20,000 nt of DNA from an uncultured virus (IMG/VR IMGVR_UViG_3300048832_000103) (Duplodnaviria; Heunggongvirae; Uroviricota; Caudoviricetes): IMG/VR virus record IMGVR_UViG_3300048832_000103; one strand, written 5' to 3'. Both the position numbers and the translations under genes were made by a program. Under the pieces are notes generated by a model. The model was not told the DNA's origin. It saw only the letters and a list, made by a program, of their open reading frames with translations, and did not search any database. Shown one piece after another: positions 1-19,966 of this stretch (positions within the stretch are counted from its first letter, which is position 1; each line of letters starts with the position of its first letter).

Positions 1-267
1 CTCGAGCACTGGCTCTGCCGGAATAGCTGGAATCGGTTCCTCACGAGCTTTGAAGCACTCGTCGCAATAGTCCGTGCGCGAGCCGTCCGAGTTACGCCCA
101 CCTTGCCAGCCAGGCGCAGGCAGACCGTCGAGGAACCATATCGACGGGATAGGCCCCTTCCACTGAGGGTCGTATACTGTATGCTCAATACCGCATAGGT
201 CGCACTTGATGTGCGGCTTGCCGGGAACGCCGTTCAGTCTATCGTCTAAACCGCAGTGGTAACTCAT
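1..267 (-). CDS. Hypothetical Zn-finger-like protein (3' end outside window)
   Basis: Translated by hand from ATG at 267: MSYHCGLDDRLNGVPGKPHIKCDLCGIEH...DYCDECFKAREEPIPAIPAEPVLE. Open to the window edge; two CxxC pairs; not in the ORF track. Confidence 0.7.
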   Translation of the reverse strand, partial: MSYHCGLDDRLNGVPGKPHIKCDLCGIEHTVYDPQWKGPIPSIWFLDGLPAPGWQGGRNSDGSRTDYCDECFKAREEPIPAIPAEPVLE

Positions 268-545
268 GAAAAGTCTTATCCGCTTTCCGGTCCGCTTCGA
301 CCTCTTCAGGCGTGGGTACTCGATTCTCTCGCTGATAGGTGTTGAAGCCGCAGCAACACCCTTCGCCGGCACTTAGCGTTTTCGCACGAGCAGGGCTCCT
401 CGCAATTATGTGGCAGCGCCAGCGCTCGCCGTTCCAAAATAGGTGTTTGCAATACGTTATAGGGTCAAACTCCCCATAACCGCACGGCCCTTTGCGACAA
501 CAATAATCAACCGCACCCGATGCAAGGTCTATTCAACTCTCGCAT
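239..545 (-). pseudogene. Frameshifted Cys-rich protein (CxxCGxCC-type metal-binding hypothetical)
   Basis: ATG at 545, downstream of a purine-rich tract, reads MRELNRPCIGCG then TGA (509-507). The +1 frame continues YCCRKGPCGYGEFDPITYCKHLFWNGERWRCH...GEGCCCGFN... to TAG at 241-239 and has no start codon upstream of the Cys motif. Confidence 0.6.
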
Positions 546-570
546 ACGGGTGCAATTTCCTTTCTCTTTA

Positions 571-1353
571 TTAGTCAATTAAAAACCCATACTTTCTTGC
601 CAGTCTAGGCCCATCACTACTATATAGCGCTTTCCAAAGAAGGCGAACACTATTACCACCAAACTGAACGATATGGAATTTACTTTTACGTGTTAAACTG
701 CCAACTTCCCGAAACGTTCGCCAGCACCAGTCCCGAAATCCGTCAATTACAGTGGGATGCTTTGCTATTTTGGCGCATAAACCGCCATTTTTCCTTCTAT
801 GAAAACACCCATCTCCATCAAACAAACCCCGATAATAATGACACTCTAAATCCTCTCTCAAACATATCCGCTGTGCCTTATATGTTTTCCGTGGGACAAC
901 CCCCCACAACAAAAGCTGACTAGCGATATCGGGTGCCGTTACGCGAAGCGATATCATTTCTGATACTAATCCAGATTTTCGACGACAACTTCTCGGTATA
1001 ACTGGCCCAGTATATTGTATAAACGATGCTAATCCGTCAACAAGCTCTCTGTCCTTACTATGCAATTCGAGAGATACTAACCCTCTATCAGACACGCTTC
1101 CATCCGCCGCAAGAAGACCTGCCCAGTACGCTGTTACAGGTTCGAAATGTTCAAACGCATCATGCCTATAAGTGTATTTTCTATTTCTATCAGAAATTGT
1201 TCTTCTTTCAACACCAGCTTTTTCTAACCATTTCCTGATAGTCTCGCCACTTACGCCAAAATCTCGCGCAATCCTTGAACAATGCTCTCCACGCTCATAC
1301 CTTTGTATGATTTCTTGTACGTTAGTAAGCTCAAACTCGGACGACGAAATCAT
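571..1353 (-). CDS. Free-standing LAGLIDADG homing endonuclease with N-terminal HTH
   Basis: Two LAGLIDADG-type helices, AYWAGLLAADGSV and YYRGLFDGDGCF; N-terminal HTH (IARDFGVSGETIRKWL); C-terminal LARK. Lower GC than neighbours. Confidence 0.85.
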   Translation of the reverse strand: MISSSEFELTNVQEIIQRYERGEHCSRIARDFGVSGETIRKWLEKAGVERRTISDRNRKYTYRHDAFEHFEPVTAYWAGLLAADGSVSDRGLVSLELHSKDRELVDGLASFIQYTGPVIPRSCRRKSGLVSEMISLRVTAPDIASQLLLWGVVPRKTYKAQRICLREDLECHYYRGLFDGDGCFHRRKNGGLCAKIAKHPTVIDGFRDWCWRTFREVGSLTRKSKFHIVQFGGNSVRLLWKALYSSDGPRLARKYGFLID

Positions 1354-1598
1354 TACTTCTTAACCTTTTTGTTGACCGACTCCCAACCAGAGCAAATACC
1401 AGACCCGCAAGTGTAAACGATAACCTCTCGAGGGAAAAACTCGTTCGGGTCATAGTGGCTTCTAAGCTCGCACTTCCAATAGTGACCTTTGTAGCCGAAA
1501 TCCATCAAAACCGTGCCGCTGTGCTCGTCTTCGCTTATATGCTTACAGCTTTCGCAGGTCTTGCCTCTCGGGTGTAAAACGTCAACGGCCATGGTCAA
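1353..1598 (-). CDS. Small Cys-rich hypothetical protein
   Basis: 81 aa with CESCKH...C...C...C; overlaps both neighbouring genes by 1-4 nt. Confidence 0.65.
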   Translation of the reverse strand: MTMAVDVLHPRGKTCESCKHISEDEHSGTVLMDFGYKGHYWKCELRSHYDPNEFFPREVIVYTCGSGICSGWESVNKKVKK

Positions 1599-1906
1599 TC
1601 GTCCTTCACAGTCCCAAAGATTCGGTATGACTCGATCTCGGTAGCCTTGTCCTTGAAAGGCCCTTCGACCATCGCGTCAGGAATGAACGTCAAGGCCTCG
1701 GCAACCTGATCGCCGAGCTGCGTCGAAACCTGCACGAGCACCCCGCGACCTTCGATGTTCATGGCCTTTGTTGATTTCATCCACTGGTGCTGATCAGAAA
1801 AAACTTTTGAGATGAGCTTCCAGAGGTCTGGATTGCCAATTATTTTTACAGTGCTATCTAGCTCCTTGGCGTCATTGGTGTTTTTTGCGTTCACTTGCTT
1901 TACCAT
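1595..1906 (-). CDS. Conserved phage hypothetical protein
   Basis: 103 aa with AAGGAG RBS. WMKSTKAM...VQVSTQ...VAEALTFIP resembles a phage hypothetical family I recall (not searched). Confidence 0.75.
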   Translation of the reverse strand: MVKQVNAKNTNDAKELDSTVKIIGNPDLWKLISKVFSDQHQWMKSTKAMNIEGRGVLVQVSTQLGDQVAEALTFIPDAMVEGPFKDKATEIESYRIFGTVKDD

Positions 1907-1909
1907 TGG

Positions 1910-2965
1910 TCACTCCTTTATGTGTTCTATCTGCAAAGCGCATGCTCCACAGGTTGTGCAGGCGCCGTAAATCCCAGCCTCTTCAGGCAGGTCGATCACG
2001 GTGTCAAGAATCCACGACGAGCCCTGTGGGCAGGCACAGCGCCACGCTAAGAGCGGCCGCGAAGACCTCGAGATCAAGAGGAGCTGTTCCTTGTCGCGGA
2101 AGAACTTGACCACGAATCTATCGAAAACAGATTCGCCCGGTAGCAAGAGCAACCGCACCGCGGCATGACCTTCCCCACGGGCAATCAGGCGCATGTAGAC
2201 CGGAACTCTGCTCAAATCTCCCCAAATCGAGCCTTGAGCTCCAGGCCGAGCGCTCCCACGGGTATCCTCGGCAAGCTCAAAGAGCGCTTGATACTCGCCA
2301 ACTTGCTCCATGGGGAGAATCTCCGCGAGGAGCTCGAGGTCGACGGGCAACCGCTCGACGAGCAGGCGCTCTTCCTGCCATTGTCGCTGAGCGGCCTGGG
2401 CCTTGCCGGCCGGTGTCCAGCCGCCCTTGTCCCGGCGAATCTCCCCTCGAGGTACTTCGGGCAGGGGCTCGACGGCGCCGAAGGCTAGAGCGGCCTCGCA
2501 TTCGTCCTTGCCACAGCTCTTTGGTGGCACGGCCACGCCGCCCGTTCCATAGAAGAACTTCTTCGCAGGGATGAGCTCTTGGCAGACCGGGCAAAGCACC
2601 TCGGGCGCAACCACTCGAGGTCGGTGCGCGGGCTTGATGGGCTCGTTCACGCGGCCAAGCTCCACGACGAGCTTTTTCGCGTCGCAATGGAAGTGAGCGG
2701 CAAGAGCCTCGAGGCTTTCCCCATCGCGATACCTCTGAACAAGCTCGACGAGCTGGTCTGGCGTGAACTGGTACTTGTTGGGTGGAGGTCGGCGTATTGG
2801 CCTATCAGGGCTCCCAGTGATGCCGAGCTCGCGACAGACGACCTTGACCACGGTAGACCAGACCACACCAGTCTTGCGGGCAATGTCCGGGCCGGTGTGA
2901 CCCGTCTCGTACAGTTCAACGATTTCGTCGATTTGCTCGCGTGTTAAGTGAACTCCACTAGGCAT
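1910..2965 (-). CDS. Double-HTH / Zn-finger DNA-binding protein
   Basis: 351 aa with two HTH-like repeats (EIVELYETGHTGPDIARKTGV; ELVQRYRDGESLEALAAHF) and Cys clusters CPVC, CGKDEC, CAC, CTTC. Confidence 0.7.
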   Translation of the reverse strand: MPSGVHLTREQIDEIVELYETGHTGPDIARKTGVVWSTVVKVVCRELGITGSPDRPIRRPPPNKYQFTPDQLVELVQRYRDGESLEALAAHFHCDAKKLVVELGRVNEPIKPAHRPRVVAPEVLCPVCQELIPAKKFFYGTGGVAVPPKSCGKDECEAALAFGAVEPLPEVPRGEIRRDKGGWTPAGKAQAAQRQWQEERLLVERLPVDLELLAEILPMEQVGEYQALFELAEDTRGSARPGAQGSIWGDLSRVPVYMRLIARGEGHAAVRLLLLPGESVFDRFVVKFFRDKEQLLLISRSSRPLLAWRCACPQGSSWILDTVIDLPEEAGIYGACTTCGACALQIEHIKE

Positions 2966-3240
2966 TAGCGCTTGATCCTTATTGATTCCTTGACGGTGTC
3001 AAGGAGCTGTGACTCGACACACGAGCCGAGGCATGCTTGCAAGGTTGCCGAGCAGCTCTTATTTACGATTTCGATTTCGGCTATATGTTCCTTGAGAGCT
3101 TTTATTTCCGCTTCGAGGGTTTGAATTTTCTTAAGCTTTTCGTCGCCTTTGATAGCGGAAACCATTGTTAGGAACATTAGTGCTGCAACCGCCAGCATAT
3201 AAAAGATTGCTACCATACGCCCGTTCGAAAAATTTATCAT
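2965..3240 (-). CDS. Small membrane-anchored coiled-coil protein
   Basis: Hydrophobic N-terminal segment MVAIFYMLAVAALMFLTMVSAI followed by a heptad-like helix. ATG 3240 preferred over GTG 3279. Confidence 0.65.
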   Translation of the reverse strand: MINFSNGRMVAIFYMLAVAALMFLTMVSAIKGDEKLKKIQTLEAEIKALKEHIAEIEIVNKSCSATLQACLGSCVESQLLDTVKESIRIKR

Positions 3241-3269
3241 TTTTTCGCCTTTTTTAGCTCGCGAGCCTT

Positions 3270-3320
3270 TCCCTATCACGACAAATAGGTATTTGTCAAG
3301 AGGCGGTTTACATTGTAAAC
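3270..3320 (-). promoter_or_regulatory. Putative promoter with two palindromic operator-like sites
   Basis: TTGACA on the minus strand at 3299-3294 overlaps the palindrome GACAAATA-GG-TATTTGTC (3280-3297). A second palindrome GTTTACA-T-TGTAAAC lies at 3306-3320. The -10 element is weak. Confidence 0.5.
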
Positions 3321-3429
3321 AGCAAAAAAGCGTGTGAACGCTAATCGAGCGTTTGGCTCAAAATTCGCGAAAAAGGGGGTTTGGTTGTTTTGAACGCGCT
3401 TTGACCAGGTTTTTGGGGAGCTTGACCGA

Positions 3430-3690
3430 CTAGTCGGGAAGGCATGCTAAACGACGTACTTGAGAATAAGCCCAGTTAAAAAGCTGTGGTTTGGTAATAT
3501 TGGTTGGCATACGCTCAGTAATGCCAAGCTCATAACCGGCAGGACAATCCTGAGCAAACACAATCGAACCACGTTTGAAGTAAAGGTACAAAGAAATAAC
3601 ACCGGCATGCTGGCAAGCGATAACAAATGCCTCATTCACCGCTTTACTCGTTTCTTCAATTAGCCACTTTTCACTTTCTTGATGATTCAT
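3430..3690 (-). CDS. Hypothetical protein (early region)
   Basis: 86-aa ORF, ATGA-coupled to the upstream gene. Confidence 0.7.
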   Translation of the reverse strand: MNHQESEKWLIEETSKAVNEAFVIACQHAGVISLYLYFKRGSIVFAQDCPAGYELGITERMPTNITKPQLFNWAYSQVRRLACLPD

Positions 3691-4025
3691 GACAACGCCC
3701 CTTTCAGTATCGCGGAAACAATCCGCTTGTCTTCGGCCGTAGCATTGCGCAGCTTTTCGGCCAGTAACTCGGACAGTTCTGCCACTTCCGGATCGAGGTT
3801 ATTCTCTAGCATCGCATGGACCTTTTCAGTAGCGGTCAAAATAGCGTTCCCTGCTACGTAGCAGATTTCGTCTCGGTAGCGCGTTAACATTCCTTCAAGT
3901 AGCTCATGCTTAGTCTTAGGGAACCCGTGAAAATCGGGATAGTCCACTTCGCTAGCGGCTAGGTCGATGTCTTCGCACGCCATTTCCAGCGCTCCACGTA
4001 CTATGTGATCTTTTAGTAGCGTCAT
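3687..4025 (-). CDS. Hypothetical protein (early region)
   Basis: 112-aa ORF with ATGA overlaps at both ends and a purine-rich RBS. Confidence 0.75.
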   Translation of the reverse strand: MTLLKDHIVRGALEMACEDIDLAASEVDYPDFHGFPKTKHELLEGMLTRYRDEICYVAGNAILTATEKVHAMLENNLDPEVAELSELLAEKLRNATAEDKRIVSAILKGALS

Positions 4026-6752: not shown

Positions 6753-6995
6753 ATGGGTAATTTGATTGGACATCAACACAAAGCAATCAAAAGCAGGCAT
6801 GTTTGCTTCATCAATTGTGTAAATCCGCACAACTGCAACGAAGTGGCTCATGGAGGTATCTGCATCATTGAAACCTGTTCGTGTAAAGCCGAGCGCTACA
6901 CAAACTCAAATCAAGGGCGTTTGGAAATAGGAAAATGGTTTGATGCAGAACCAACACAATTCGACGAAACGAGCCATTACAAATGCGTGCTATGA
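6753..6995 (+). CDS. Small Cys/His-rich hypothetical protein
   Basis: AAGGAG RBS before ATG 6753; HGGICIIETCSC...TNSN...W. Confidence 0.7.
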   Translation: MGNLIGHQHKAIKSRHVCFINCVNPHNCNEVAHGGICIIETCSCKAERYTNSNQGRLEIGKWFDAEPTQFDETSHYKCVL

Positions 6996-9610: not shown

Positions 9611-10270
9611 TCAAAAAATCCGATTCACTAAAATTTGCGTCTCATCGAGTAAAAACGGCCGGATTTTTTCGGCCAGTCTAAGCCGGCCGCGAATGAGCTG
9701 TGCTGTGCGCACAGTCCGTGCTGAGCAGCTCCCACTTGCGTAGCCGGCTAGACCTCCGCTACACGCGCCTCGAGCGCCCGTATTTCGGCACTTCTCCGCG
9801 TCGAGCACCAAAGACCCGCCGCACTCTTGAACGACCCTGGCAAGCCAGCGAGCGCCACATGCCGCTTGACCTTCGGCCGTGGTCAGATCACACCCACGCT
9901 TTGCCTTGCCATGGACCTGGACCAAGCCAAACTCGCCAAGCCGACCTCGAGCTGCGGTGTCGAAAGAGCTCTCCTTGTAGGCCATGGCGATGAACAGGGC
10001 AGGATCTAGGTTGTTGTCTACCGCGGCACCGTATAGGGCGACCTCGAAGCGCTCGCTCTCTTTCCATCTTGGGTCTTTTGCGGGGGTATGGTCACGCTCG
10101 AGCAGGTAAGCTACAGCTCCCAGGGGCCTGGATTGACCCGTATTGGGCTCGGCCGGCTCGGCAAAAGCTGGTTTCAGACCGCACGTTTCGAAGAATAAAG
10201 CGATGCAGACGCCTATGAACAGGGCGAAAAATACAAATTTCATTCCAGCGGTTAGGTCACGACGATCCAT
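9611..10270 (-). CDS. Lytic transglycosylase (SLT domain) with N-terminal signal/anchor; candidate endolysin
   Basis: LDPALFIAMAYKESSFD (catalytic E-S), GEFGLVQV (GLxQ), late AGYASG; N-terminal TM FVFFALFIGVCIALFF; GGAGG RBS before ATG 10270. Confidence 0.85.
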   Translation of the reverse strand: MDRRDLTAGMKFVFFALFIGVCIALFFETCGLKPAFAEPAEPNTGQSRPLGAVAYLLERDHTPAKDPRWKESERFEVALYGAAVDNNLDPALFIAMAYKESSFDTAARGRLGEFGLVQVHGKAKRGCDLTTAEGQAACGARWLARVVQECGGSLVLDAEKCRNTGARGACSGGLAGYASGSCSARTVRTAQLIRGRLRLAEKIRPFLLDETQILVNRIF

Positions 10271-10332
10271 TTTGTACCTCCATGGTCCATTGGTTTCATC
10301 GACCCTACCAGACACCGGGAGTCATTTCAATA

Positions 10333-10361
10333 TTGACAAATTTTGTCGACTTCTGTAGACT
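10333..10361 (+). promoter_or_regulatory. Near-consensus sigma70 promoter with overlapping palindrome
   Basis: TTGACA (10333-10338), 17-nt spacer, TAGACT (10356-10361). The palindrome GACAAA-T-TTTGTC overlaps the -35. Confidence 0.75.
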
Positions 10362-10367
10362 ACGTCA

Positions 10368-11102
10368 CCGTAGGGGGCGGTATATCCTTTATAAATTCAA
10401 AATATATGGAAAAAGGGGCAAAAGAGGAACTCCCAAGCTTGCGCTTAGGAGCCCCTGCCTCAACCGGATCGGACTTGGAGTTACCCTGTTCTACCCCGGG
10501 AAAGACCAGAGTCAAGAGATTTCGATAGGGGAGCACCTTCGAAGGCGTTCGAAGACGCTCCCAGGACAACGACACAGCCGAGGGGACGAAGCGAACCTAT
10601 CACGAGCTCCCCGCGAACGCAAGTTGCACGGCTTGTGCGGAAAATGTGCGGCCTTAAAATGTAGCTGGACCCCGCGTGGAATCTAACAAGGCGCTTGCAT
10701 CCATCCTGGTTCCGCACGGGGTCTGTTTTCCGTGCGAAAAGCGTGCGGTGCGGTTTTATCAGACAACCGGACAAGACAACCAGACACCGTCCTGTCTGAT
10801 TGTCTTGTTCGCGGTAAACTCAACAGCACAGCGACCTCGGGAGCATTTTTTGCTTGCCTCGAGGAGCTCGTCGTGGTAGCAGAGAGGCGGCTTCGGTGCG
10901 GTCCCCTGTCTAATACCCAGCAGGGGGCCGCACAGGGCCTCCGACGGTGTTGTTTTTCATGCTCGGCTCCTCGTAAAAGGGCTCCCTCGGCTGCAACCGA
11001 GGGGCTCAGTTATGCCTCGGCGCGGCTCTCGTCTCTCTTACGGTTTGCGGCTCTTTAGAGGCGGGAACTTTGGATGTTGGGAGCTGCGCCGAGGCCACCT
11101 TT
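10368..11102 (+). ncRNA. Candidate large structured non-coding RNA (family unassigned)
   Basis: No credible long ORF. At least seven stems whose non-canonical pairs are mostly G-U on the + strand; upstream promoter; terminal stem 11014-11095 followed by CACCTTTT. Confidence 0.55.
10420..10455 (-). terminator. Intrinsic terminator (minus strand)
   Basis: Minus strand reads GGGGCTCCTAAGC-GCAA-GCTTGGGAGTTCC-TCTTTT: 13-bp stem with three G-U pairs, GNRA loop and U-tract. Confidence 0.65.
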
Positions 11103-11900
11103 TCAAATCTTGGCGTAGAGCATGAACTCGAGCTCACGGAAGAGCTTGTGCGGCGGCTTCGGGTCGAGCGTGCCGATGCCCATTAGGCCGCGAGGCTTGA
11201 GCACCTTCGCAATCTCGACCATGGTATCCTCGGCGACCGAGGCCTCGAGGTACAAGAGCAGGTTCCTGCAAAGCACGAGGTCATAGACCGCGGGCTCGAC
11301 ACCCCACCAGTCGCCCGTCCTGGTCCGAACGTCCGCAACCCTGGCATGGATGCGCGCCGCGAGCTCGGGGATGAGCCGCAGACGGTTCCCAGGGGGGATC
11401 TCCACGAGAGACTTCCAAACCCTCGGCGTCAGGAAGGTCAGCTTGTTCAAGTGCTTCTTGGGAAAGGTCGGGTTCATGGCATTCTTGACGCACTTGGGCG
11501 CGATGTCCAAGGCGTCAATCGTGATGTTCTTCTCCGAGGTGAACTGGTGCAAGAGCAGCGCAATCGTCGCGAGCTCATGCCCGTCGGAGCACCCCAGAGA
11601 CAGAACGCGCACGTTGTCCTCGGGTTTGATTTGGCAGAGAAAGTGCCGCTGCAAGGCTTCCCAGAACGTGTGATTTCGGCCGAAGTACGTCGAGTGCACC
11701 AGGCCATGATCGGCCAGGTTCGGCATCTCTTGGTCAATGTGCTCTCGGAGATACTCTAGATAGGCCTTAGCCGTGGCGAATCCGCGAGTATGTGCGTACT
11801 TTTTAATGTTCCTCTTTGAGAAGTTTTTGATGACCGAAATCTGGGCTCCAGTGTGCTCAACGAGTACGGCACAGAACTGGGCATAAACCTTCTTGTCCAC
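11103..11900 (-). CDS. cheR: CheR-like SAM-dependent protein-glutamate methyltransferase
   Basis: N-terminal helical domain ending STYFGRN (cf. TxFFR); VRVLSLGCSDGHE (cf. IWSAGCSTGEE); IDALDI; YDLVLCRNLLLY (cf. FDxIxCRNVLIY); LKPRGLMGIG. GGAGG RBS before GTG 11900. Confidence 0.85.
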   Translation of the reverse strand: MDKKVYAQFCAVLVEHTGAQISVIKNFSKRNIKKYAHTRGFATAKAYLEYLREHIDQEMPNLADHGLVHSTYFGRNHTFWEALQRHFLCQIKPEDNVRVLSLGCSDGHELATIALLLHQFTSEKNITIDALDIAPKCVKNAMNPTFPKKHLNKLTFLTPRVWKSLVEIPPGNRLRLIPELAARIHARVADVRTRTGDWWGVEPAVYDLVLCRNLLLYLEASVAEDTMVEIAKVLKPRGLMGIGTLDPKPPHKLFRELEFMLYAKI

Positions 11901-12088
11901 GACAACCTCCGGTAGAACGACAACGCTTGCGAGGCATCGAAGACCAGCTTGCAAGCGGGGCACCTAAACACCCACTCCAACGGGTCATCGCCCAGAGTGG
12001 ACACGACGATCTTCTTCGCGAATTCCACGGGAATCGGGCTCCCTCGTTGGCCGCAGTGGGGGCAGACGAGTACGGCCAGGTAGGTCAT
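11756..12088 (-). CDS. Zn-ribbon protein, C-terminal tail overlapping the CheR-like gene
   Basis: CPHC...CPAC within the first ~46 aa; ATGA-coupled to the upstream gene; last 145 nt overlap the CheR-like ORF. Confidence 0.6.
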   Translation of the reverse strand: MTYLAVLVCPHCGQRGSPIPVEFAKKIVVSTLGDDPLEWVFRCPACKLVFDASQALSFYRRLSWTRRFMPSSVPYSLSTLEPRFRSSKTSQRGTLKSTHILADSPRLRPI

Positions 12089-12612: not shown

Positions 12613-13332
12613 TCATCCTTTGCGTGTCAGCACCCATCCTATGAGGCCCCCTACTGCCGCCAAGAGCATCCACCCCCACCATCCTCGAGCCGAGCCCTGA
12701 TCAATGTTGATCAAGGCAAAATCCTGGGCCTTGGCGATCTGCGCAGGGTCGGCGCGGTAAATCTCCGACCGGACACGAGCGCACAGCTTCGCGAAGTCTT
12801 CGCCGTCGAAGGCCTTGTCCGTGTAGTAGCCACCCGTGCCGAGGGAATCCCAATACCGGGCGTCATACCCAGGCCCACCGGCAATCAAGTACCTCGCAGC
12901 GCTCGCGTAGCCGGCATTCTTCGAGGTCGGAGAGATCCGGTTCAAGAAGTCGTCTATGGCTTCCTTCCAGTTCTTGAACGCTCGCCACTGCTCGCCGGGG
13001 ACAGCATAGTAGTTGCCGGCCGCGTCCGCCTCTTGGGTGTTCATGGTGTAGTAGCCGTCGGGCCACGTACCACGCTTCACTCCCCAGGCGTTGTAATGCC
13101 AGACCTTCTGAGCCCAACCGCTCGCGAAGATGGCATGAGCGGTCATACGCGCCCGCTGGTCGGCGTTCGTGATCCCGTAGCGGGATAGAAGCGCGTCCAT
13201 GTTCAGGGCGACTTCGCTGTGATTGTTGGCTTCCGCCCAAGGAGTCTTTCGTGCGTTCAAGAGTTCGCCCAAGAGGATACCTCCATAGACCACGCCAGAG
13301 AGCAGACTCACCGTGAGGAAAGCGTTTATCAA
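12613..13332 (-). CDS. GH73/FlgJ-like peptidoglycan hydrolase domain protein with N- and C-terminal TM segments
   Basis: AHAIFASGWA (cf. AQAxLESGWG), YNAWGVK (cf. NNLFGIK), TQE, WRAFKNWKEAIDD (cf. FRxYxSxxES), GYYTD (cf. GYATD). Start placed at TTG 13332 after GGAGAGG; the track gives 13440. Confidence 0.75.
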   Translation of the reverse strand: MINAFLTVSLLSGVVYGGILLGELLNARKTPWAEANNHSEVALNMDALLSRYGITNADQRARMTAHAIFASGWAQKVWHYNAWGVKRGTWPDGYYTMNTQEADAAGNYYAVPGEQWRAFKNWKEAIDDFLNRISPTSKNAGYASAARYLIAGGPGYDARYWDSLGTGGYYTDKAFDGEDFAKLCARVRSEIYRADPAQIAKAQDFALINIDQGSARGWWGWMLLAAVGGLIGWVLTRKG

Positions 13333-13363: not shown

Positions 13364-13969
13364 CTACCCTTTAGCTTTCCCACCGTCAAGCTCAAAAAAC
13401 CTTTTTTTGAATTCCATGTAGTCTCTTCTCGGGTTCGCATGACACGTGTCCAGTTCCATTAGTCGGACCTCGAGGCCCTGCCTCTGGCCGATGTACTTGT
13501 TCAAGAGCAATCGTCCGTAGTTTCGGAAAGGCCCCTCGGGAGCCAAGCTCGTGATTTCTCGAGCCATCTGTAAGTCGTCGGCATCATTTATAATTTGCAA
13601 CTGACCTTTATGCATGGGAACGCAGTCATATCGACGCCATATCAACTTCTGCCATCGGGCTTCGTACTCGTCGAGGTCCACGCCGAGCTGCTTAAGGTAG
13701 CGCTTCACCGGCCGCGTGACGTCGCCCACATAGGTCTCATGGGCATCGTGCAAGAGGGCGGCGAGACGGAGCTCGTCGGGGACCAGACGAGACACTTCCA
13801 ACGAGTGACGAGCGACCGAGATGTGGGTCGATAGGTGTCCGTTGAACCGTAGGATTCCCGCCAGACTCCATGCAATATCTTCTATATCAATGTCTTCTGA
13901 TTTAGGATCACTTAGATCAACCCAAGCACCAGAAGACACACCTAGCCAACAGGGCTCATTTGAACTCAT
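13364..13969 (-). CDS. HD-domain phosphohydrolase (YfbR/YfdR-like nucleotidase)
   Basis: IEDIAWSLA...RFNGH...SVARHS...ALLHDAHETYVGD...P.K...AD, the characteristic phage HD family pattern. Confidence 0.9.
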   Translation of the reverse strand: MSSNEPCWLGVSSGAWVDLSDPKSEDIDIEDIAWSLAGILRFNGHLSTHISVARHSLEVSRLVPDELRLAALLHDAHETYVGDVTRPVKRYLKQLGVDLDEYEARWQKLIWRRYDCVPMHKGQLQIINDADDLQMAREITSLAPEGPFRNYGRLLLNKYIGQRQGLEVRLMELDTCHANPRRDYMEFKKRFFELDGGKAKG

Positions 13970-14820: not shown

Positions 14821-15087
14821 CTATGCCTGGTGCCGCGTGTTTGCTGAATCTAAAACGACTGTGACCGGACTATCGTCTACAAGTTCACCTATTATATGCT
14901 CACGACACATTACCCAAGAGCGCCTATCGTTAGAACTCTCCGCTCGAGAAGCAATATCGAACAGAGCGCACCACGTTCCACACTGCGCAGACCCGTCACC
15001 ATAAGGACAACCAAGCTTCCGACCATCCTCGGCTACCAGGATCTTGGTGGTCTTGGTGTTCTTCCGAATTAGGCTAACCCTCTTCAC
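14821..15087 (-). CDS. Small Cys-containing hypothetical protein
   Basis: GTG 15087 in GTGA overlap with the cysH stop; CPY...CGTWCALF...C. Confidence 0.65.
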   Translation of the reverse strand: MKRVSLIRKNTKTTKILVAEDGRKLGCPYGDGSAQCGTWCALFDIASRAESSNDRRSWVMCREHIIGELVDDSPVTVVLDSANTRHQA

Positions 15088-15707
15088 GTTTTCACCGCAT
15101 GGATTCCGCACTCTAGCCTCTCACCGGCCCAGCGGCCAGAGCGCTCATCGTCCGAGGTCGGCAGGCTCGTGCAAGGCTGGCACCCAATCGACCGGTATCC
15201 CTGGCTGTGCAGCGGTTGCACTGGTACGTCGTTATCTCGAATGTATTTCCAGCATTGCTCGCTTGTCCAGTTTAGCATCGGAGCCAAACGGATCTTGCCA
15301 AACTGGTCAGGCTCGATTTCCCTTGTGTCCTTTCTCGTCGAGGCCTGGTCCCACCGAAGAGCGGAAACCCATGCCTGATAAGGCTGTAGCGCGCACCACA
15401 GTGGAAGAACCTTGTGCTCGGTGCAGCACTCTTGCGTCGGCGGGAGGTGCGTGCTCTGCGGGGGAGGTCCGACCCAGTGCAGGTCCAGATCCCATTCCCG
15501 GCCCATGAGGTTGGCGAAGTCCACGGTTTCACTGAACAGCTTGCCAGTGTCGATGGAAATGACCGGGACGTGCTCCCAGACCTTGCGGGCATGATCAAGC
15601 AGAACCATCCCTGAGTAGCCCCACGCTGTGGTGAAGATGACCTTGTCGTTGTACATGTCACGGTAGAAACTCAAAGTCTCGCGCAACCTATCAGACTTCT
15701 CTGTCAC
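15084..15707 (-). CDS. cysH: APS/PAPS reductase (Fe-S type motifs)
   Basis: IDTGKLFSET, ECCTEHKVLPL, LRWDQASTR, PMLNWT, PLHSQGYRSIGCQPCT, ERSGRW, ECGIH. GTG start in GTGA overlap. Confidence 0.93.
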   Translation of the reverse strand: MTEKSDRLRETLSFYRDMYNDKVIFTTAWGYSGMVLLDHARKVWEHVPVISIDTGKLFSETVDFANLMGREWDLDLHWVGPPPQSTHLPPTQECCTEHKVLPLWCALQPYQAWVSALRWDQASTRKDTREIEPDQFGKIRLAPMLNWTSEQCWKYIRDNDVPVQPLHSQGYRSIGCQPCTSLPTSDDERSGRWAGERLECGIHAVKT

Positions 15708-16465
15708 CAAGGTACTGGTCCTTTCAGCGCTCCGGTGAGGTTGATCACGGGAGGTCTCTCGGTCTCACCATATTTCTTAGTCCATCTCCACCATCCTGCA
15801 AGGCCTACCGCGGCCTCGAGGCCGGGAGCAGGCAAGCAGTTCACTAAGCTCTGTAGGTGCTCCAAGGCGCGGTAAATCTCCGATGCCGAGACCTCGATAG
15901 CCTCGGGGAGCTCGGGCGCGTCGGCCAGAGCAGGCGCCCAACGAGGGATGAGATCGGGCTCGGGGCGCACGGGAATGACCACGGTACTTCGAGCTGGCCA
16001 AACGGCTTTGACCGCCGCGCAACCATATCCGCCGCCTGTGGCCTGGAAGTAATGATCTGGCGGGCTATCACGGTACATTTCATGGACTTGCTGTAATATC
16101 TCTCGAGCCATAATCTGATGAGCAATCATCTTCAATTGGTTGTTGCTTCCAGCGAATAAGATAGTCCTTCCCTTATCAGACATCTCATACTCGTCCATAA
16201 CCTGCTTTATGACACGAATCCGGGGAGTCTTATCGTCCCATGTGTAAACTACAACATCTAAATCTTTGCATATACTAGTTATAGCCTCACCAGTGTTACC
16301 ACTGGTTGCTACAATAATCGTTTTCACACCCTGCAAAGCCGCAAAATGTTTCACAACCACAGCTTCGCGGTATTTAAAAGACCCCGTTGGGAGCATATAA
16401 TCACATTTCAGATAAACCATTCGGCCGCAACCGTCATCTGATAGGATGAGGGGACTTCTTATCAT
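15704..16465 (-). CDS. Fold-type II PLP enzyme, threonine-synthase family, cysteate-synthase-like
   Basis: LKCDYMLPTGSFKYRE (PLP Lys), VATSGNTG, PDHYFQATGGGYG (phosphate loop), AAVGLAG, INLTG. ATG 16465 in ATGA overlap. Confidence 0.8.
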   Translation of the reverse strand: MIRSPLILSDDGCGRMVYLKCDYMLPTGSFKYREAVVVKHFAALQGVKTIIVATSGNTGEAITSICKDLDVVVYTWDDKTPRIRVIKQVMDEYEMSDKGRTILFAGSNNQLKMIAHQIMAREILQQVHEMYRDSPPDHYFQATGGGYGCAAVKAVWPARSTVVIPVRPEPDLIPRWAPALADAPELPEAIEVSASEIYRALEHLQSLVNCLPAPGLEAAVGLAGWWRWTKKYGETERPPVINLTGALKGPVPW

Positions 16466-17274
16466 TTCTTCCATACAACACCTTTGAATTGCGTGCCGGG
16501 GTTATGATTGATTTCTATAATCACAAATTTATTATTTTTATCAAATGTTCCATCGACGGACCAATTTTGATTTCTATAACGTTTAACCTTTGGGACTATC
16601 TCTTTGTTTATCTGCTCGACTACTTCAGGAATGCCCCCAAGCTTCTCCCCAAAAGGAGCGGTCTCAAGAGATTTTTCTTTGACTACTTTAGCCGTATGAG
16701 AATCAATTGATTTCAAATCAATATCTTCTTTACTTCGAATAACACCCTCTAAGTCGACCCATATGTATTTTCTGTCCTTCCAGCCAGAGTTAGAGATTCC
16801 TGAATGTTCAAAATACAGTGGCGTTAGGCCTATAAAGCTCACTCGGTCGTGCCCAATAAGTCGGATAACCGGGGGGCATCTAATATCATCGGTGAACTTG
16901 TGTAGCCGTTCATGTGGGTAAATCCATTCCTCGGCAAACCACGAACGTACAGCCATTAATTTTTTTGGAGTGTTTAGCTTTATCTTTCTTATCCTATTTA
17001 GTTTGACCCTTAGCTTGTTAGGTGCAATTAAATCTTTATCTGGAAACATTATGAAACCTTCAGAAGTCTTCTCTAGCAGAGCTATGCCGCTGCTTTGACG
17101 ACCACTCTGAGGTTTCCACACGTATTCTCCCATAGGGGCGTTCACTAGAGCCCCTACCGTAGCATAAAACCGCCCAGGATTAATCAAGTTGTTAGGATAA
17201 GAAAAAGAGGTATTCTCGCTAAGCCAAAGCTTAGTGAAAATCTTGTTCCAAAACATTTTGGCATTTATTAACAT
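16462..17274 (-). CDS. ATP-grasp ligase (paralog 4)
   Basis: NKIFTK, YVWKPQSGRQSSGI, WFAEEWI, PVIR, WSVDG, IIEINHNPG. Confidence 0.85.
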   Translation of the reverse strand: MLINAKMFWNKIFTKLWLSENTSFSYPNNLINPGRFYATVGALVNAPMGEYVWKPQSGRQSSGIALLEKTSEGFIMFPDKDLIAPNKLRVKLNRIRKIKLNTPKKLMAVRSWFAEEWIYPHERLHKFTDDIRCPPVIRLIGHDRVSFIGLTPLYFEHSGISNSGWKDRKYIWVDLEGVIRSKEDIDLKSIDSHTAKVVKEKSLETAPFGEKLGGIPEVVEQINKEIVPKVKRYRNQNWSVDGTFDKNNKFVIIEINHNPGTQFKGVVWKK

Positions 17275-18102
17275 CTATTTCTTCTTCCAAGTGACTCCTA
17301 AAAATGGGGTTCCTATTGCAGAGTTAATTTCGATAATAACAAACCGATTATTCTTATCAAAGACTCCATCAACAGACCAGCACTTGTTATGAACTAGCTT
17401 CAATTTCGGACTAATTTCACTATTCACTTGATCGATGATTTCCTTAACGCCCTCAATTTTTTGGCCACACAAGTCCGTGTCAATACGCCTATCCACAACA
17501 GACTTTAGTGTTTTCTTGTCAGCACTAGACAGGTCCATTTCATCGGTGTGTCTTACGACACCATTAAAATCTAACCATAGATACTTCCGATGGTCCCAAC
17601 CAAAGGAAGATATGCCGACCTCGTTAAAGTATACTGGCGAAATCACAACAAAATGAACTTTACTGCGGCCGCAAATACGAATAACTGGCGGACAGCGCAT
17701 GTCATCCGTAAACGGTTTCAAGCGTTCGTGTGGCTTAATCCATTCCTCGGCAAACCACCTTCTATGACCTCGAATCTCTTTGGCCTCGGAAATAGTTAAC
17801 CGCTTTATCCTAATTAACTCTTCAATAGTGGCTTGCAAAGATAATACATCACTAGATGGAAATATCTTGTATCCGTCGGCAGTTTTATCCAGTAGAGCTA
17901 CTCCCCAACCCTTGCGGCCAAAGCATGGCTTCCACACATATTCCCCAACGGGTAACTCCTCTAATTTATTGATAGAAACGTCGAAATAATCGAGCTCTAT
18001 GCAGTTCTTAGGATAAGCAAATGTAGTATTTTCGCTAAGCCATTGCTTAGTATAAATCTTGTTTGCAAACCTTTTAGGTATTATCCTATGATTAATAATC
18101 AT
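17275..18102 (-). CDS. ATP-grasp ligase (paralog 3)
   Basis: NKIYTK, YVWKPCFGRKGWGV, WFAEEWI, PVIR, WSVDG, IIEINS. ATG 18102 in ATGA overlap. Confidence 0.85.
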   Translation of the reverse strand: MIINHRIIPKRFANKIYTKQWLSENTTFAYPKNCIELDYFDVSINKLEELPVGEYVWKPCFGRKGWGVALLDKTADGYKIFPSSDVLSLQATIEELIRIKRLTISEAKEIRGHRRWFAEEWIKPHERLKPFTDDMRCPPVIRICGRSKVHFVVISPVYFNEVGISSFGWDHRKYLWLDFNGVVRHTDEMDLSSADKKTLKSVVDRRIDTDLCGQKIEGVKEIIDQVNSEISPKLKLVHNKCWSVDGVFDKNNRFVIIEINSAIGTPFLGVTWKKK

Positions 18103-18941
18103 GGCCTTCCCGACTTCCCTTTCCATGTAACACCCAAAAATCCTGGTGCGGCCATTTTATTAATCTCGACGACAATGAATCTGTCATCTTTATCAAAGAT
18201 TCCATCAACAGACCAGCTTCGGAACTTGTTAAATTTCAGCTTAGGGCTAATTTCTCGATTTATTTGGTTTATCAGTTCTCTAACACCTTCTATTTTTTCA
18301 CCGTAAAAAGGTGTTTCTACACTTCTATCTGGTACAATTCGCTTAGTTAAAGCATTAGATTTTTTTATATTTAGCGCCTCTTCCGGTATAATCACGCCAT
18401 CGAAATCGAGCCATATATACTTGCGTTGTTTCCAACCCGTCGGCGCTATACCTGACAAATTGAGATACACTGGCGACAACGTCACAAAATGGACTCTATT
18501 CTGACCACAAACGCGAATAAGTGGGGGCAACCTTTTGTCATCGGTGAATTTATGGAAGCGTTCATGTGGATAAATCCACTCTTCTGCAAACCATTTTTTA
18601 AATCTTCCGGCTTCACGGACCTCTGAAATAGATAATCTTTTTATCCTAGTCAGTTCACAAACTAATTCTTCCGAAGACATAATTTTGTCGGACGGGTATA
18701 CTTTAAAACCTTCTACGTTTTTTTCTACTAGGGCTACACCCCAGCTTTTTCTACCATAGCAAGGCTTCCAAACATAGTTACCACAAGGTATATCAAGAAA
18801 CCGGCTAGAAGCTTTACCGAAATCATCTAAATCTATAACATTCTTAGGATAGGCAAAGGTTGTATTAGCCTGCAACCATTCCTTGGTAAAAATCTTATCG
18901 TCGAATCTTGCAGTGTTGAGACCATCCTTATTTATTCGCAT
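18099..18941 (-). CDS. ATP-grasp ligase (paralog 2)
   Basis: DDKIFTK, YVWKPCYGRKSWGV, WFAEEWI, PLIR, WSVDG, VVEINK..APG. Confidence 0.85.
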   Translation of the reverse strand: MRINKDGLNTARFDDKIFTKEWLQANTTFAYPKNVIDLDDFGKASSRFLDIPCGNYVWKPCYGRKSWGVALVEKNVEGFKVYPSDKIMSSEELVCELTRIKRLSISEVREAGRFKKWFAEEWIYPHERFHKFTDDKRLPPLIRVCGQNRVHFVTLSPVYLNLSGIAPTGWKQRKYIWLDFDGVIIPEEALNIKKSNALTKRIVPDRSVETPFYGEKIEGVRELINQINREISPKLKFNKFRSWSVDGIFDKDDRFIVVEINKMAAPGFLGVTWKGKSGRP

Positions 18942-19966
18942 GGTCGCCTCAACCCGTCGTAAGTGTTTAGATGCTTCACGTTTGGAGCATGCTCAATCTC
19001 AATGCAAACGAAGTCGACCGAACCATCCTTGTTCTGTCGATAGACACCGTCAAAAGCAAACAGTGAGTGAGGGCTCATTGCCAGACAGATCTCGTTTTTT
19101 ATCGAGTCTAGGATCTTGTCGAAGAACGGCAAGACCATCCCCGTGACGTCCTTCACCGTCCCGTAGTTCTCAATGGACCAGGGCAAGTCGTTTGGCACGT
19201 CTGGCCGAGTCTGGAGGAGCTCTCCCTTGTAGTTGAAGCAAACCCGCCGAGCCCCGCCCTGCAAGGTTCCCCGACCTCGAGAGGCTTTCGTCGGTATGTG
19301 GAGCTCCCCGAAGTGGAAATCTCCTCGGCTCATGATGATTCGCACGAGCGGATTGAACGGGGCATCATACCCAAGGGTTTTCAATTCGTCGGGTGCCGGC
19401 GAGACGTACTCTTCCACGATCCATTTAAAAGACGCGGGAGCTTTGGGGATGTCTGAAACAATATCAACAAACAACTCATTGGAATCAAGTAGACGTAAAT
19501 TAGCATCCCTGAATCCAATATTGTTTGGTTCCTTCCAAACCATGCGAACTCCCCTCGAACGAGACAGATTAACAGGTTTCACTATTATCCAACGTTCTGT
19601 AGGACAGCTTGTGCCTACCAGCCAATCACATAGTTCTTTCCAAGTAGCAGAGCATACTAACGTAGGAGGAATATTGAATGATGTATTAGCTAACAACCAG
19701 TTCTTAGTCCAAGATTTGTTCCATGTAGACCTCAACACTTTATTGTATTGTACTGGCGCATTCCTTCTTCGGTTTGCATGCAACCGTTTAGGATTTATAA
19801 CATTAGGCCCTACTGGAGAAGTTATTGCAACCTTACCCATCTTTTGGCCTCTTTCGTGGTGTCTTAGAGCGTACAATATGTCTGGGAGCTTTCTTTGGCT
19901 CCTTATCAGACTTAGCAGCTTGAGCTTTTTTTGCTCGCGCCGCTCTCTCAAAAGGTCCAGTTCCAT
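18932..19966 (-). CDS. ATP-grasp ligase, alpha-L-glutamate-ligase-related (RimK-related) (paralog 1)
   Basis: NRRRN...YN...NKSWTK, IVKPVNLSRSRGV, WIVEEYV, PLVRII, LHIPTKASRGRGTLQGGA (cf. LRLPTxxSxGxANLHQG), FD, IEIEHAP. The frame is open to the window edge, so the start could lie further upstream. Confidence 0.8.
   Translation of the reverse strand: MELDLLRERREQKKLKLLSLIRSQRKLPDILYALRHHERGQKMGKVAITSPVGPNVINPKRLHANRRRNAPVQYNKVLRSTWNKSWTKNWLLANTSFNIPPTLVCSATWKELCDWLVGTSCPTERWIIVKPVNLSRSRGVRMVWKEPNNIGFRDANLRLLDSNELFVDIVSDIPKAPASFKWIVEEYVSPAPDELKTLGYDAPFNPLVRIIMSRGDFHFGELHIPTKASRGRGTLQGGARRVCFNYKGELLQTRPDVPNDLPWSIENYGTVKDVTGMVLPFFDKILDSIKNEICLAMSPHSLFAFDGVYRQNKDGSVDFVCIEIEHAPNVKHLNTYDGLRRPCE

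Follow-up and report, generated by a model that had tools for sequence, protein, structure and literature searches.

A candidate gene for a large structured non-coding RNA in a gene-free gap of an uncultured phage

To our knowledge, phages have only a few large structured RNAs, such as GOLLD, ROOL, and a transcript of ICP1, and no function has been assigned to any of them. The lambda OOP and P22 sar RNAs are cis-antisense RNAs of ~70–80 nt that act purely by pairing, and the ColE1 RNA II primer is a highly folded RNA of several hundred nucleotides made from its own promoter. By size and setting, the element described here comes closest to GOLLD, ROOL, and the ~800-nt ICP1 transcript, as these are presented in two reports (PMC7567579, PMC12286853). 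According to the first report, the transcript of vibriophage ICP1 is non-coding, occupies an ORF-less gap of ~1 kb next to the lysis cluster, and is the most abundant phage transcript by RNA-seq; its authors compare it with GOLLD and ROOL (PMC7567579).

We analyzed a 20,000-nt stretch of DNA from an uncultured virus (Caudoviricetes; IMG/VR record IMGVR_UViG_3300048832_000103), hereafter the window, in which a gap without genes spans positions 10271–11102 (~830 nt) between two minus-strand genes. A conserved ORF is absent from both strands of this gap. To its left, the gene at 9611–10270 (−) encodes an SLT-like lytic transglycosylase with an N-terminal membrane anchor (Pfam SLT, E = 3.3e-4; phrog_38211); the alignment of this protein shows an ESSFD motif and a hydrophobic N-terminal stretch, and its start is the ATG at 10270, preceded by GGAGGT. 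To the right lies a gene for a CheR-like SAM methyltransferase (11103–11963, −; Pfam CheR, 6.5e-19), the final gene of a leftward operon ahead of the gap, whose true start is probably near 11900 because its relatives are 264–281 aa long. As at the ICP1 locus, a phage gap of ~1 kb without ORFs adjoins a lysis-type gene, here the membrane-anchored transglycosylase. Unlike the ICP1 RNA, which was seen by RNA-seq, the RNA proposed here is a predicted one. A blastn comparison of the region with a collection of 50,697 phage records gave no match. We favor, with moderate confidence, the reading that the gap is a gene for a structured plus-strand RNA of ~735 nt, which would be made from a phage promoter and would fully overlap the 3′ UTR of the convergent operon. 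The element is probably a new orphan phage ncRNA. Since both flanking genes are on the minus strand, such an RNA would be antisense to them, as pointed out in an earlier note on this DNA, which had proposed a large ncRNA here.

The window is phage-like and encodes LAGLIDADG/HTH endonuclease-type proteins, a dNMP phosphatase, a PAPS-reductase-type enzyme, a glucosaminidase-like lysin, and many orphan ORFs. The LAGLIDADG-type endonuclease lies at 571–1353 (−; phrog_4645, 1.2e-32) and a 351-aa multi-HTH protein at 1910–2965 (−); a related phage contig, IMGVR_UViG_3300037041_001875 of IMG/VR (hereafter G002), has the 351-aa gene within its terminal repeat. A run of enzymes on the minus strand (15084–19966) comprises a PAPS-reductase-type protein (2.2e-34), a PLP-dependent enzyme (2.3e-17), two weak ATP-grasp-like proteins, and two orphan ORFs. 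The leftward operon continues with the dNMP phosphatase (13364–13969), a Trm112-like zinc ribbon (11756–12088), and the CheR-like methyltransferase (11103–11963). Together, the enzyme run, the phosphatase, the methyltransferase, and the Trm112-like protein may form a DNA or nucleotide modification pathway. The G+C content of the window varies from 0.38 to 0.63 in blocks of a few kilobases, and the gap falls within a G+C-richer block at ~9–13.5 kb.

With GOLLD and ROOL, the element shares a size of 0.6–0.8 kb, a phage-borne location, the lack of ORFs, many hairpins, and a division into a more and a less conserved half. Unlike in those families, the conserved half is the 5′ half, and a global fold and multimers would here be possibilities. 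No tRNA gene was found by ARAGORN in the 20-kb window, unlike around GOLLD and ROOL, for which a location beside tRNA islands is frequent though not obligatory. The element also differs from both in that the covariance models of GOLLD (RF01998) and ROOL (RF03087) found no match even at E ≤ 10 in the regions of the window, of locus L004, and of locus L006. At gathering thresholds, Rfam cmscan returned 0 matches in the whole window. Other families of Rfam 15 (OLE, raiA, HEARO, group I/II introns, riboswitches, 6S, tmRNA, and others) gave only chance-level matches: permissive scores were 10.8–19.4 bits as compared to gathering scores of 33–114, and no family was common to all three homologs described below. 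These scans, GOLLD and ROOL included, agree with the earlier note, which could not assign the region to any family. We also considered and rejected a group I/II intron remnant, a TnpB/IscB guide RNA, a retron, and a DGR template, none of which had an Rfam match; no RT, TnpB, or IscB was seen among the window proteins.

Protein-guided and pattern scans identified two full homologs besides the window, one on G002 (locus L002) and one on a 49-kb metagenome contig (L006). In L010, which is more distantly related and has a methyltransferase only 42% identical, the gene order is kept, and the gap of only ~205 nt contains both promoters and the terminator described below but no body. In IMG/VR, scans with exact patterns of conserved 18- to 22-mers and protein-guided scans found only IMGVR_UViG_3300037041_001875. 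The element was not found in 185,579 prokaryote genomes, which thus provided no prophage copy and no clue to the host. A metagenome scan with the methyltransferase alignment gave 74 loci, among which only L006 carries the element and only L010 the bodiless gap; L007–L009 and L011 end or diverge ahead of the gap. In L007 (889–1289 of a 1.3-kb metagenome contig), an identity of ~86% along the methyltransferase gene gives way to unrelated sequence from ~45 nt before the gene end, which represents either another rearrangement at the junction of this gene with the gap or a chimeric contig. When a profile built from the three homologs was run over 81 loci with nhmmer, nothing further was found. The nearest record, G001, begins at window position 13312 and does not reach the gap, and no second copy of the element is present in G002 or G001. 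Parts of the element were found in 20 sequencing runs from 11 studies of wetland, soil, and freshwater, and none of these 20 is listed as an RNA run. Contigs over the core were obtained in all four runs tried, with variants present, and one metagenome contig of 1,266 nt covers the whole gap with 26 differences from the window.

Between the window and G002, a core of 224 nt (10529–10752, +) is 93.3% identical, as compared to 72 and 83% at the third codon positions of the two flanking genes and 6–78% in the 3′ half of the gap. By this comparison, the core and the region are under selection. The pattern of substitutions and reading frames further indicates that the gap is non-coding. Mechanical ORFs of 134 and 108 aa on the plus strand and of 97 aa on the minus strand exist, but none is conserved and none of the three matches a Pfam or PHROG family, in line with the earlier judgment that the plus strand holds no credible ORF. 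A decayed protein gene or a gene for a short peptide could be suspected, as stop-free frames of 100–123 codons run on both strands of all three homologs and two insertions have a length divisible by three. However, the 29 substitutions in 10481–10752 are spread 11/11/7 across the codon positions, with a third-position excess in no frame, and 1-nt indels in L002 shift all long frames. In addition, no conserved start codon with a Shine-Dalgarno sequence was found. A 40-codon sORF at 10407 is open in all three homologs without a Shine-Dalgarno sequence, and the differences between the window and L006 in it, read by eye from the alignment, all change amino acids. Hence, we regard a decayed protein gene or a short-peptide gene as extremely unlikely.

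The promoter proposed earlier for the region, TTGACA-17-TAGACT, is present on the plus strand at 10333–10361, points into the gap, and matches the consensus at 10 of 12 positions; we refer to it as P_right. Its score alone is unremarkable, as the window contains 29 promoter-like sites (20.9 ± 3.8 in shuffles), nine of which score 10/12. Its hexamers and spacing are, however, unchanged in L002 and L006, and the distant L010, with its 42% identical methyltransferase, has TTGACA-17-TATGCT at the same place. The unit thus has its own promoter conserved among relatives, as expected of a stand-alone ncRNA gene. The pattern TTGAC-N18-TAGACT occurs twice in the window, where 0.03 copies are expected, and two copies were reached in none of 200 shuffles. 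The second copy (13389–13361, −) is co-oriented with the minus-strand genes, and both copies continue as TAGACTA(G)CGTC. G002 carries four copies, including those at 6952–6979 (+), 53805–53833 (+), and 13119–13147 (−), and the pattern is probably the main promoter class of the phage. The copy at 53.8 kb lies within ~700 nt without a long plus-strand ORF, ahead of the next plus-strand gene. Back-to-back with P_right, sequence comparison suggests a putative promoter of the transglycosylase gene, P_left (TTGAAA-17-TAGGGT; 10302–10330, −). In the window, it escaped the consensus promoter scan; its 17-nt spacing and hexamers are kept in the relatives (TAAGGT in L002 and L006, TATGGT in L010), while the spacer sequence differs.

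On the minus strand, a predicted intrinsic terminator of the leftward operon, T_left, occupies 10408–10455 and consists of a 13-bp stem (10426–10455) followed by UCUUUUGCCCCUUUUUCC. A hairpin with a U-tract of this type is found on the minus strand of the window, L002, L006, and L010, with a different stem sequence in L010, and the terminator scan picked it up in L006 and L002. Three pairs of the T_left stem are G-U on the minus strand and would be A-C on the plus strand. Its position implies that the leftward operon ends there, just within the 5′ end of the proposed RNA, so that a body of ~650 nt would double as the 3′ UTR of this operon. The earlier note missed this terminator inside the supposed RNA, as well as the divergent transglycosylase promoter and the role of the body as an operon 3′ UTR. 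P_right, T_left, and the stop codon of the methyltransferase gene are placed such that two predicted opposed transcripts would overlap by ~650 nt. In this respect, the unit would resemble lambda OOP and P22 sar, which also have their own promoter against a convergent operon and overlap its 3′ end. It would differ from them in being ten times longer and in the constraint on its core, which goes beyond the needs of antisense pairing.

With a strong minus-strand terminator at this place, the body would be transcribed on the minus strand too. In an alternative reading, it is the minus strand that functions. The body would then serve the leftward operon as a long structured 3′ UTR (~650 nt) or yield a processed RNA, in either case with its end at T_left, and P_right would supply only a cis-antisense or convergent modulating transcript. 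The conservation of T_left in the window, L002, L006, and L010 fits this alternative, as does its location in L010 within ~50 nt of the methyltransferase stop codon, by which the body sits between gene and terminator. We consider it rather unlikely, in part because of the structural comparison of the two strands given below. It is also opposed by a hairpin at 10979–11007, which the lineage of the window has gained right after the methyltransferase gene and which on the minus strand folds into a terminator-like stem followed by CUUUUAC. As a minus-strand terminator, it would stop leftward transcripts before they enter the body. The hairpin belongs to an insert of ~64 nt (10943–11006, listed on the minus strand), which leaves an alignment gap in L002 and L006 and recurs in contigs from runs X9 and X15.

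Turning to the favored plus-strand RNA, we place its start at 10368 from the −10 hexamer and its end at 11103 from a 3′ stem followed by UUUU, giving a length of ~735 nt. The earlier note had called for folding energies of each strand to be compared with dinucleotide shuffles, and both are beyond chance: −322.0 kcal/mol with z = −5.9 on the plus strand and −301.6 kcal/mol with z = −6.6 on the minus strand (20 shuffles each). All seven stems that it had listed are present where it had placed them. RNAalifold of the three plus-strand homologs predicted 194 pairs, with 96.5% of the cells paired. Changes on both sides were found in 21 of these pairs, as compared to 8.5 ± 2.2 in shuffles (21 was reached in 0 of 500) and 0–5 in slid controls; these numbers are indicative only, because the three sequences are related and the structure was derived from the same three. 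The support comes from local hairpins, namely, the lower stem of 10667–10724, a variable slot at 10753–10834, the hairpin 10893–10936, and the terminal stem 11014–11095. In this model, hairpin structure is conserved locally. The long-range helices 10576–10624/10852–10892 show no double changes and instead one-sided variation or breaks; in L002, two of their pairs have an unpaired cell, and further breaks come from metagenome changes at 10873 and 10892. Thus, across these three related sequences, double changes that suggest the covariation for which the earlier note had asked fall in local hairpins and not in long-range helices, and a single global fold remains hypothetical.

The conserved core is predicted to contain a hairpin at 10529–10562, a helix formed by 10626–10645 and 10725–10751, and a hairpin (10667–10683/10708–10724) with an invariant loop of ~24 nt. 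It is followed by the variable slot (10753–10834; 37% identity; strand unassigned), which holds a hairpin in all three homologs, at 10769–10810 in the window; the hairpin sequence of L002 and L006 is unrelated to that of the window. In the hairpin of the window itself, metagenome T>C changes at 10805 and 10808 would yield A-C on the plus strand and G-U on the minus strand. The hairpin 10893–10936 (+) covaries, with 5 of its 17 pairs double-changed around an invariant 12-nt loop, UCUAAUACCCAG (10909–10920). A search of the window for a target of this loop found one extra site with one mismatch, which is at chance level. A CsrA-type GGA sponge was rejected, as GGA is not enriched by a by-eye count. 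The terminal element (11014–11103, +) consists of a predicted 82-nt stem (11014–11095; −53.1 kcal/mol, z = −5.6) followed by CACC and UUUU (11100–11103), and the sequence CACCTTTT reported earlier behind the last stem is indeed found at 11096–11103. This UUUU abuts the convergent methyltransferase gene at its stop codon. As a terminator, this 3′ end would be weak, with only four U after a 4-nt spacer; it is not flagged by the scan, and in L006 the U-tract is absent at this place. Within the otherwise variable 3′ stem, an invariant island, CUUUGGAUG, includes UGGAUG (11071–11076), which is complementary to CAUCCA (10698–10703) in the invariant loop of hairpin 10667–10724. The two could form a tertiary contact, but their complementarity may be due to chance.

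The comparison of the two strands gave a mixed result that differs block by block. The conserved and recurrent P_right speaks for the plus strand. The consensus fold reaches −225.9 on the plus strand and −197.8 on the minus strand, with 21 vs 14 compensated pairs and 20 vs 32 pairs that contain a broken cell. The terminal 3′ stem is more stable on the plus strand by 18, 8, and 18 kcal/mol in the three homologs, and hairpin 10893–10936 by 3.5–4.1 kcal/mol in all three. These elements and the consensus energy argue against a minus-strand molecule, and metagenome changes at 11015 and 11021 are G-U on the plus strand and A-C on the minus strand. In favor of such a molecule, the minus fold is as far beyond shuffles as the plus fold, and the 5′ domain and the variable hairpin slot lean to the minus strand, being more stable there in two of the three homologs. 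The listed metagenome changes at paired places likewise break the plus structure seven times (nine kept) and the minus structure four times (nine kept), a tally of listed changes only, with 69 further differences outside it. The core is strand-neutral, and in L006 the overall strand difference is nil (+0.3 kcal/mol). The earlier note had argued for the plus strand from an excess of G-U on it. The seven stems do contain 11 plus-strand G-U pairs, but also 7 A-C positions, which are G-U on the minus strand, and ~10 other mismatches. The argument is thus weaker than claimed; over all strand-specific predicted pairs, the G-U test is symmetric, with 75 cells on the plus strand vs 79 on the minus strand. 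The least certain part of our analysis is that transcription would cross the body in both directions.

In L006, a gene for a C5 cytosine DNA methylase (dcm; 436 aa; L006 4317–5627, −; Pfam 1.6e-54), absent from the window and G002, lies directly behind the terminal 3′ stem, and a U-tract is found only after dcm. The gene is on the same strand as the RNA, which we counted in favor of the plus strand, and leftward transcripts of L006 would first have to traverse 1.3 kb of antisense dcm, which speaks against a functional minus strand. It is flanked by a 10-nt direct repeat, GCCGAGGCCT, which points to gain or loss through short-repeat recombination. A loose contig end with the same dcm junction was found in run X19, and a scan of the RNA strand of L006 found no other promoter-like site ahead of dcm. 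From this arrangement, the body could be read as the cis-acting leader of a cargo slot, where P_right and the leader drive or regulate an accessory gene such as dcm, and from which the window and G002 lost the cargo via recombination between the 10-nt repeats while keeping the leader. The location, strand, and repeat of dcm, the U-tract behind it, and the junction in X19 are all consistent with such a leader. On the other hand, the core is 93% identical between two genomes that lack dcm, the Rfam scans matched no riboswitch or leader family, and L010 has P_right with neither body nor dcm. Therefore, we find a leader function improbable.

The inverted repeats might also act as DNA, with transcription only activating an element such as a replication origin, a packaging site, or a recombination hotspot. 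The equal folding of both strands and the symmetric G-U test would agree with this, as would an AT-rich stretch after the promoter and the hairpin swap and insertions, which amount to recombination at the locus. The layout of G002 (65.6 kb, judged 94% complete), however, makes an origin or packaging site, which the earlier note had named as an option that would refute its RNA, unlikely. Its replication genes (helicase, primase-like, exonucleases, Sak4, and Gam) are at 19–30 kb and its cumulative GC-skew minimum is near 28–29 kb, while the element is at 10.2–10.9 kb, far from where the 3,735-nt terminal repeat ends. The ends of G002 (1–3735 and 61865–65599) are 99.97% identical, leaving a unique length of ~61.9 kb. 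They represent either a long direct terminal repeat or the overlap of a circular sequence, although the record describes the contig as linear and lacking end repeats. Moreover, no iterons or repeat families were noted, and a strand asymmetry of 8–18 kcal/mol in the 3′ stem would be meaningless for duplex DNA. We thus hold a DNA-level element to be very improbable. The same layout separates the element from ColE1 RNA II, which is likewise a highly folded RNA of several hundred nucleotides with its own promoter: the replication module and the skew minimum are 18 kb away, and the element shows no evidence of an origin.

Of the large ncRNA proposed earlier, the non-coding character, the selection, the conserved hairpins, and the conserved and recurrent promoter held up, whereas the long-range helices are uncompensated and the strand evidence is mixed. 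In the plus-strand reading that we favor, the phage-class promoter TTGAC-N18-TAGACT, with the shape of a host sigma-70-like promoter, would fire rightward from ~10368, away from the transglycosylase gene, and yield a hairpin-rich RNA of ~735 nt. We infer that this RNA would end with the 82-nt stem, predicted to be stable only on the plus strand, and UUUU, precisely where the convergent methyltransferase gene has its stop codon. It would consist of the constrained 224-nt core and peripheral hairpins, whose stems appear to be kept by compensatory change or by replacement of the whole hairpin, with some loops invariant. From the constrained core, the preserved stems, and the invariant loops, we expect it to work as a folded RNA whose fixed loops are offered to a partner, be it a protein or another nucleic acid. 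With the terminator of the leftward operon at its 5′ end, the RNA would be fully antisense to the ~650-nt 3′ UTR of that operon, and as a side effect, it may damp or process read-through transcripts. Our guess at a function is thus a folded RNA that shows its invariant loops to a partner, with antisense damping as a secondary effect. As a further and only tentative possibility, the element could be the founding member of a new class of ornate phage RNAs of ~0.7 kb with a defined tertiary or multimeric architecture like that of GOLLD and ROOL, acting in trans during infection. The architecture would be built from the invariant core, the swappable peripheral hairpins, the fixed loop UCUAAUACCCAG, and the CAUCCA/UGGAUG pair. 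If so, the RNA would act in trans and be more than a mere antisense transcript.

The layout of the locus is unusual in that two opposed terminators would enclose a non-coding unit and, in full overlap with it, the 3′ UTR of a 20-kb operon, which is a possible timing or insulation device. The reach of the finding is modest, as it concerns a single small clade of uncultured phages from wetland, soil, and freshwater without a known host. Nevertheless, the possible roles of such RNAs narrow with every further example that evolved independently and has a clear promoter, a constrained core, and natural variants, here the short form of L010, the hairpin swap, and the dcm read-through form.
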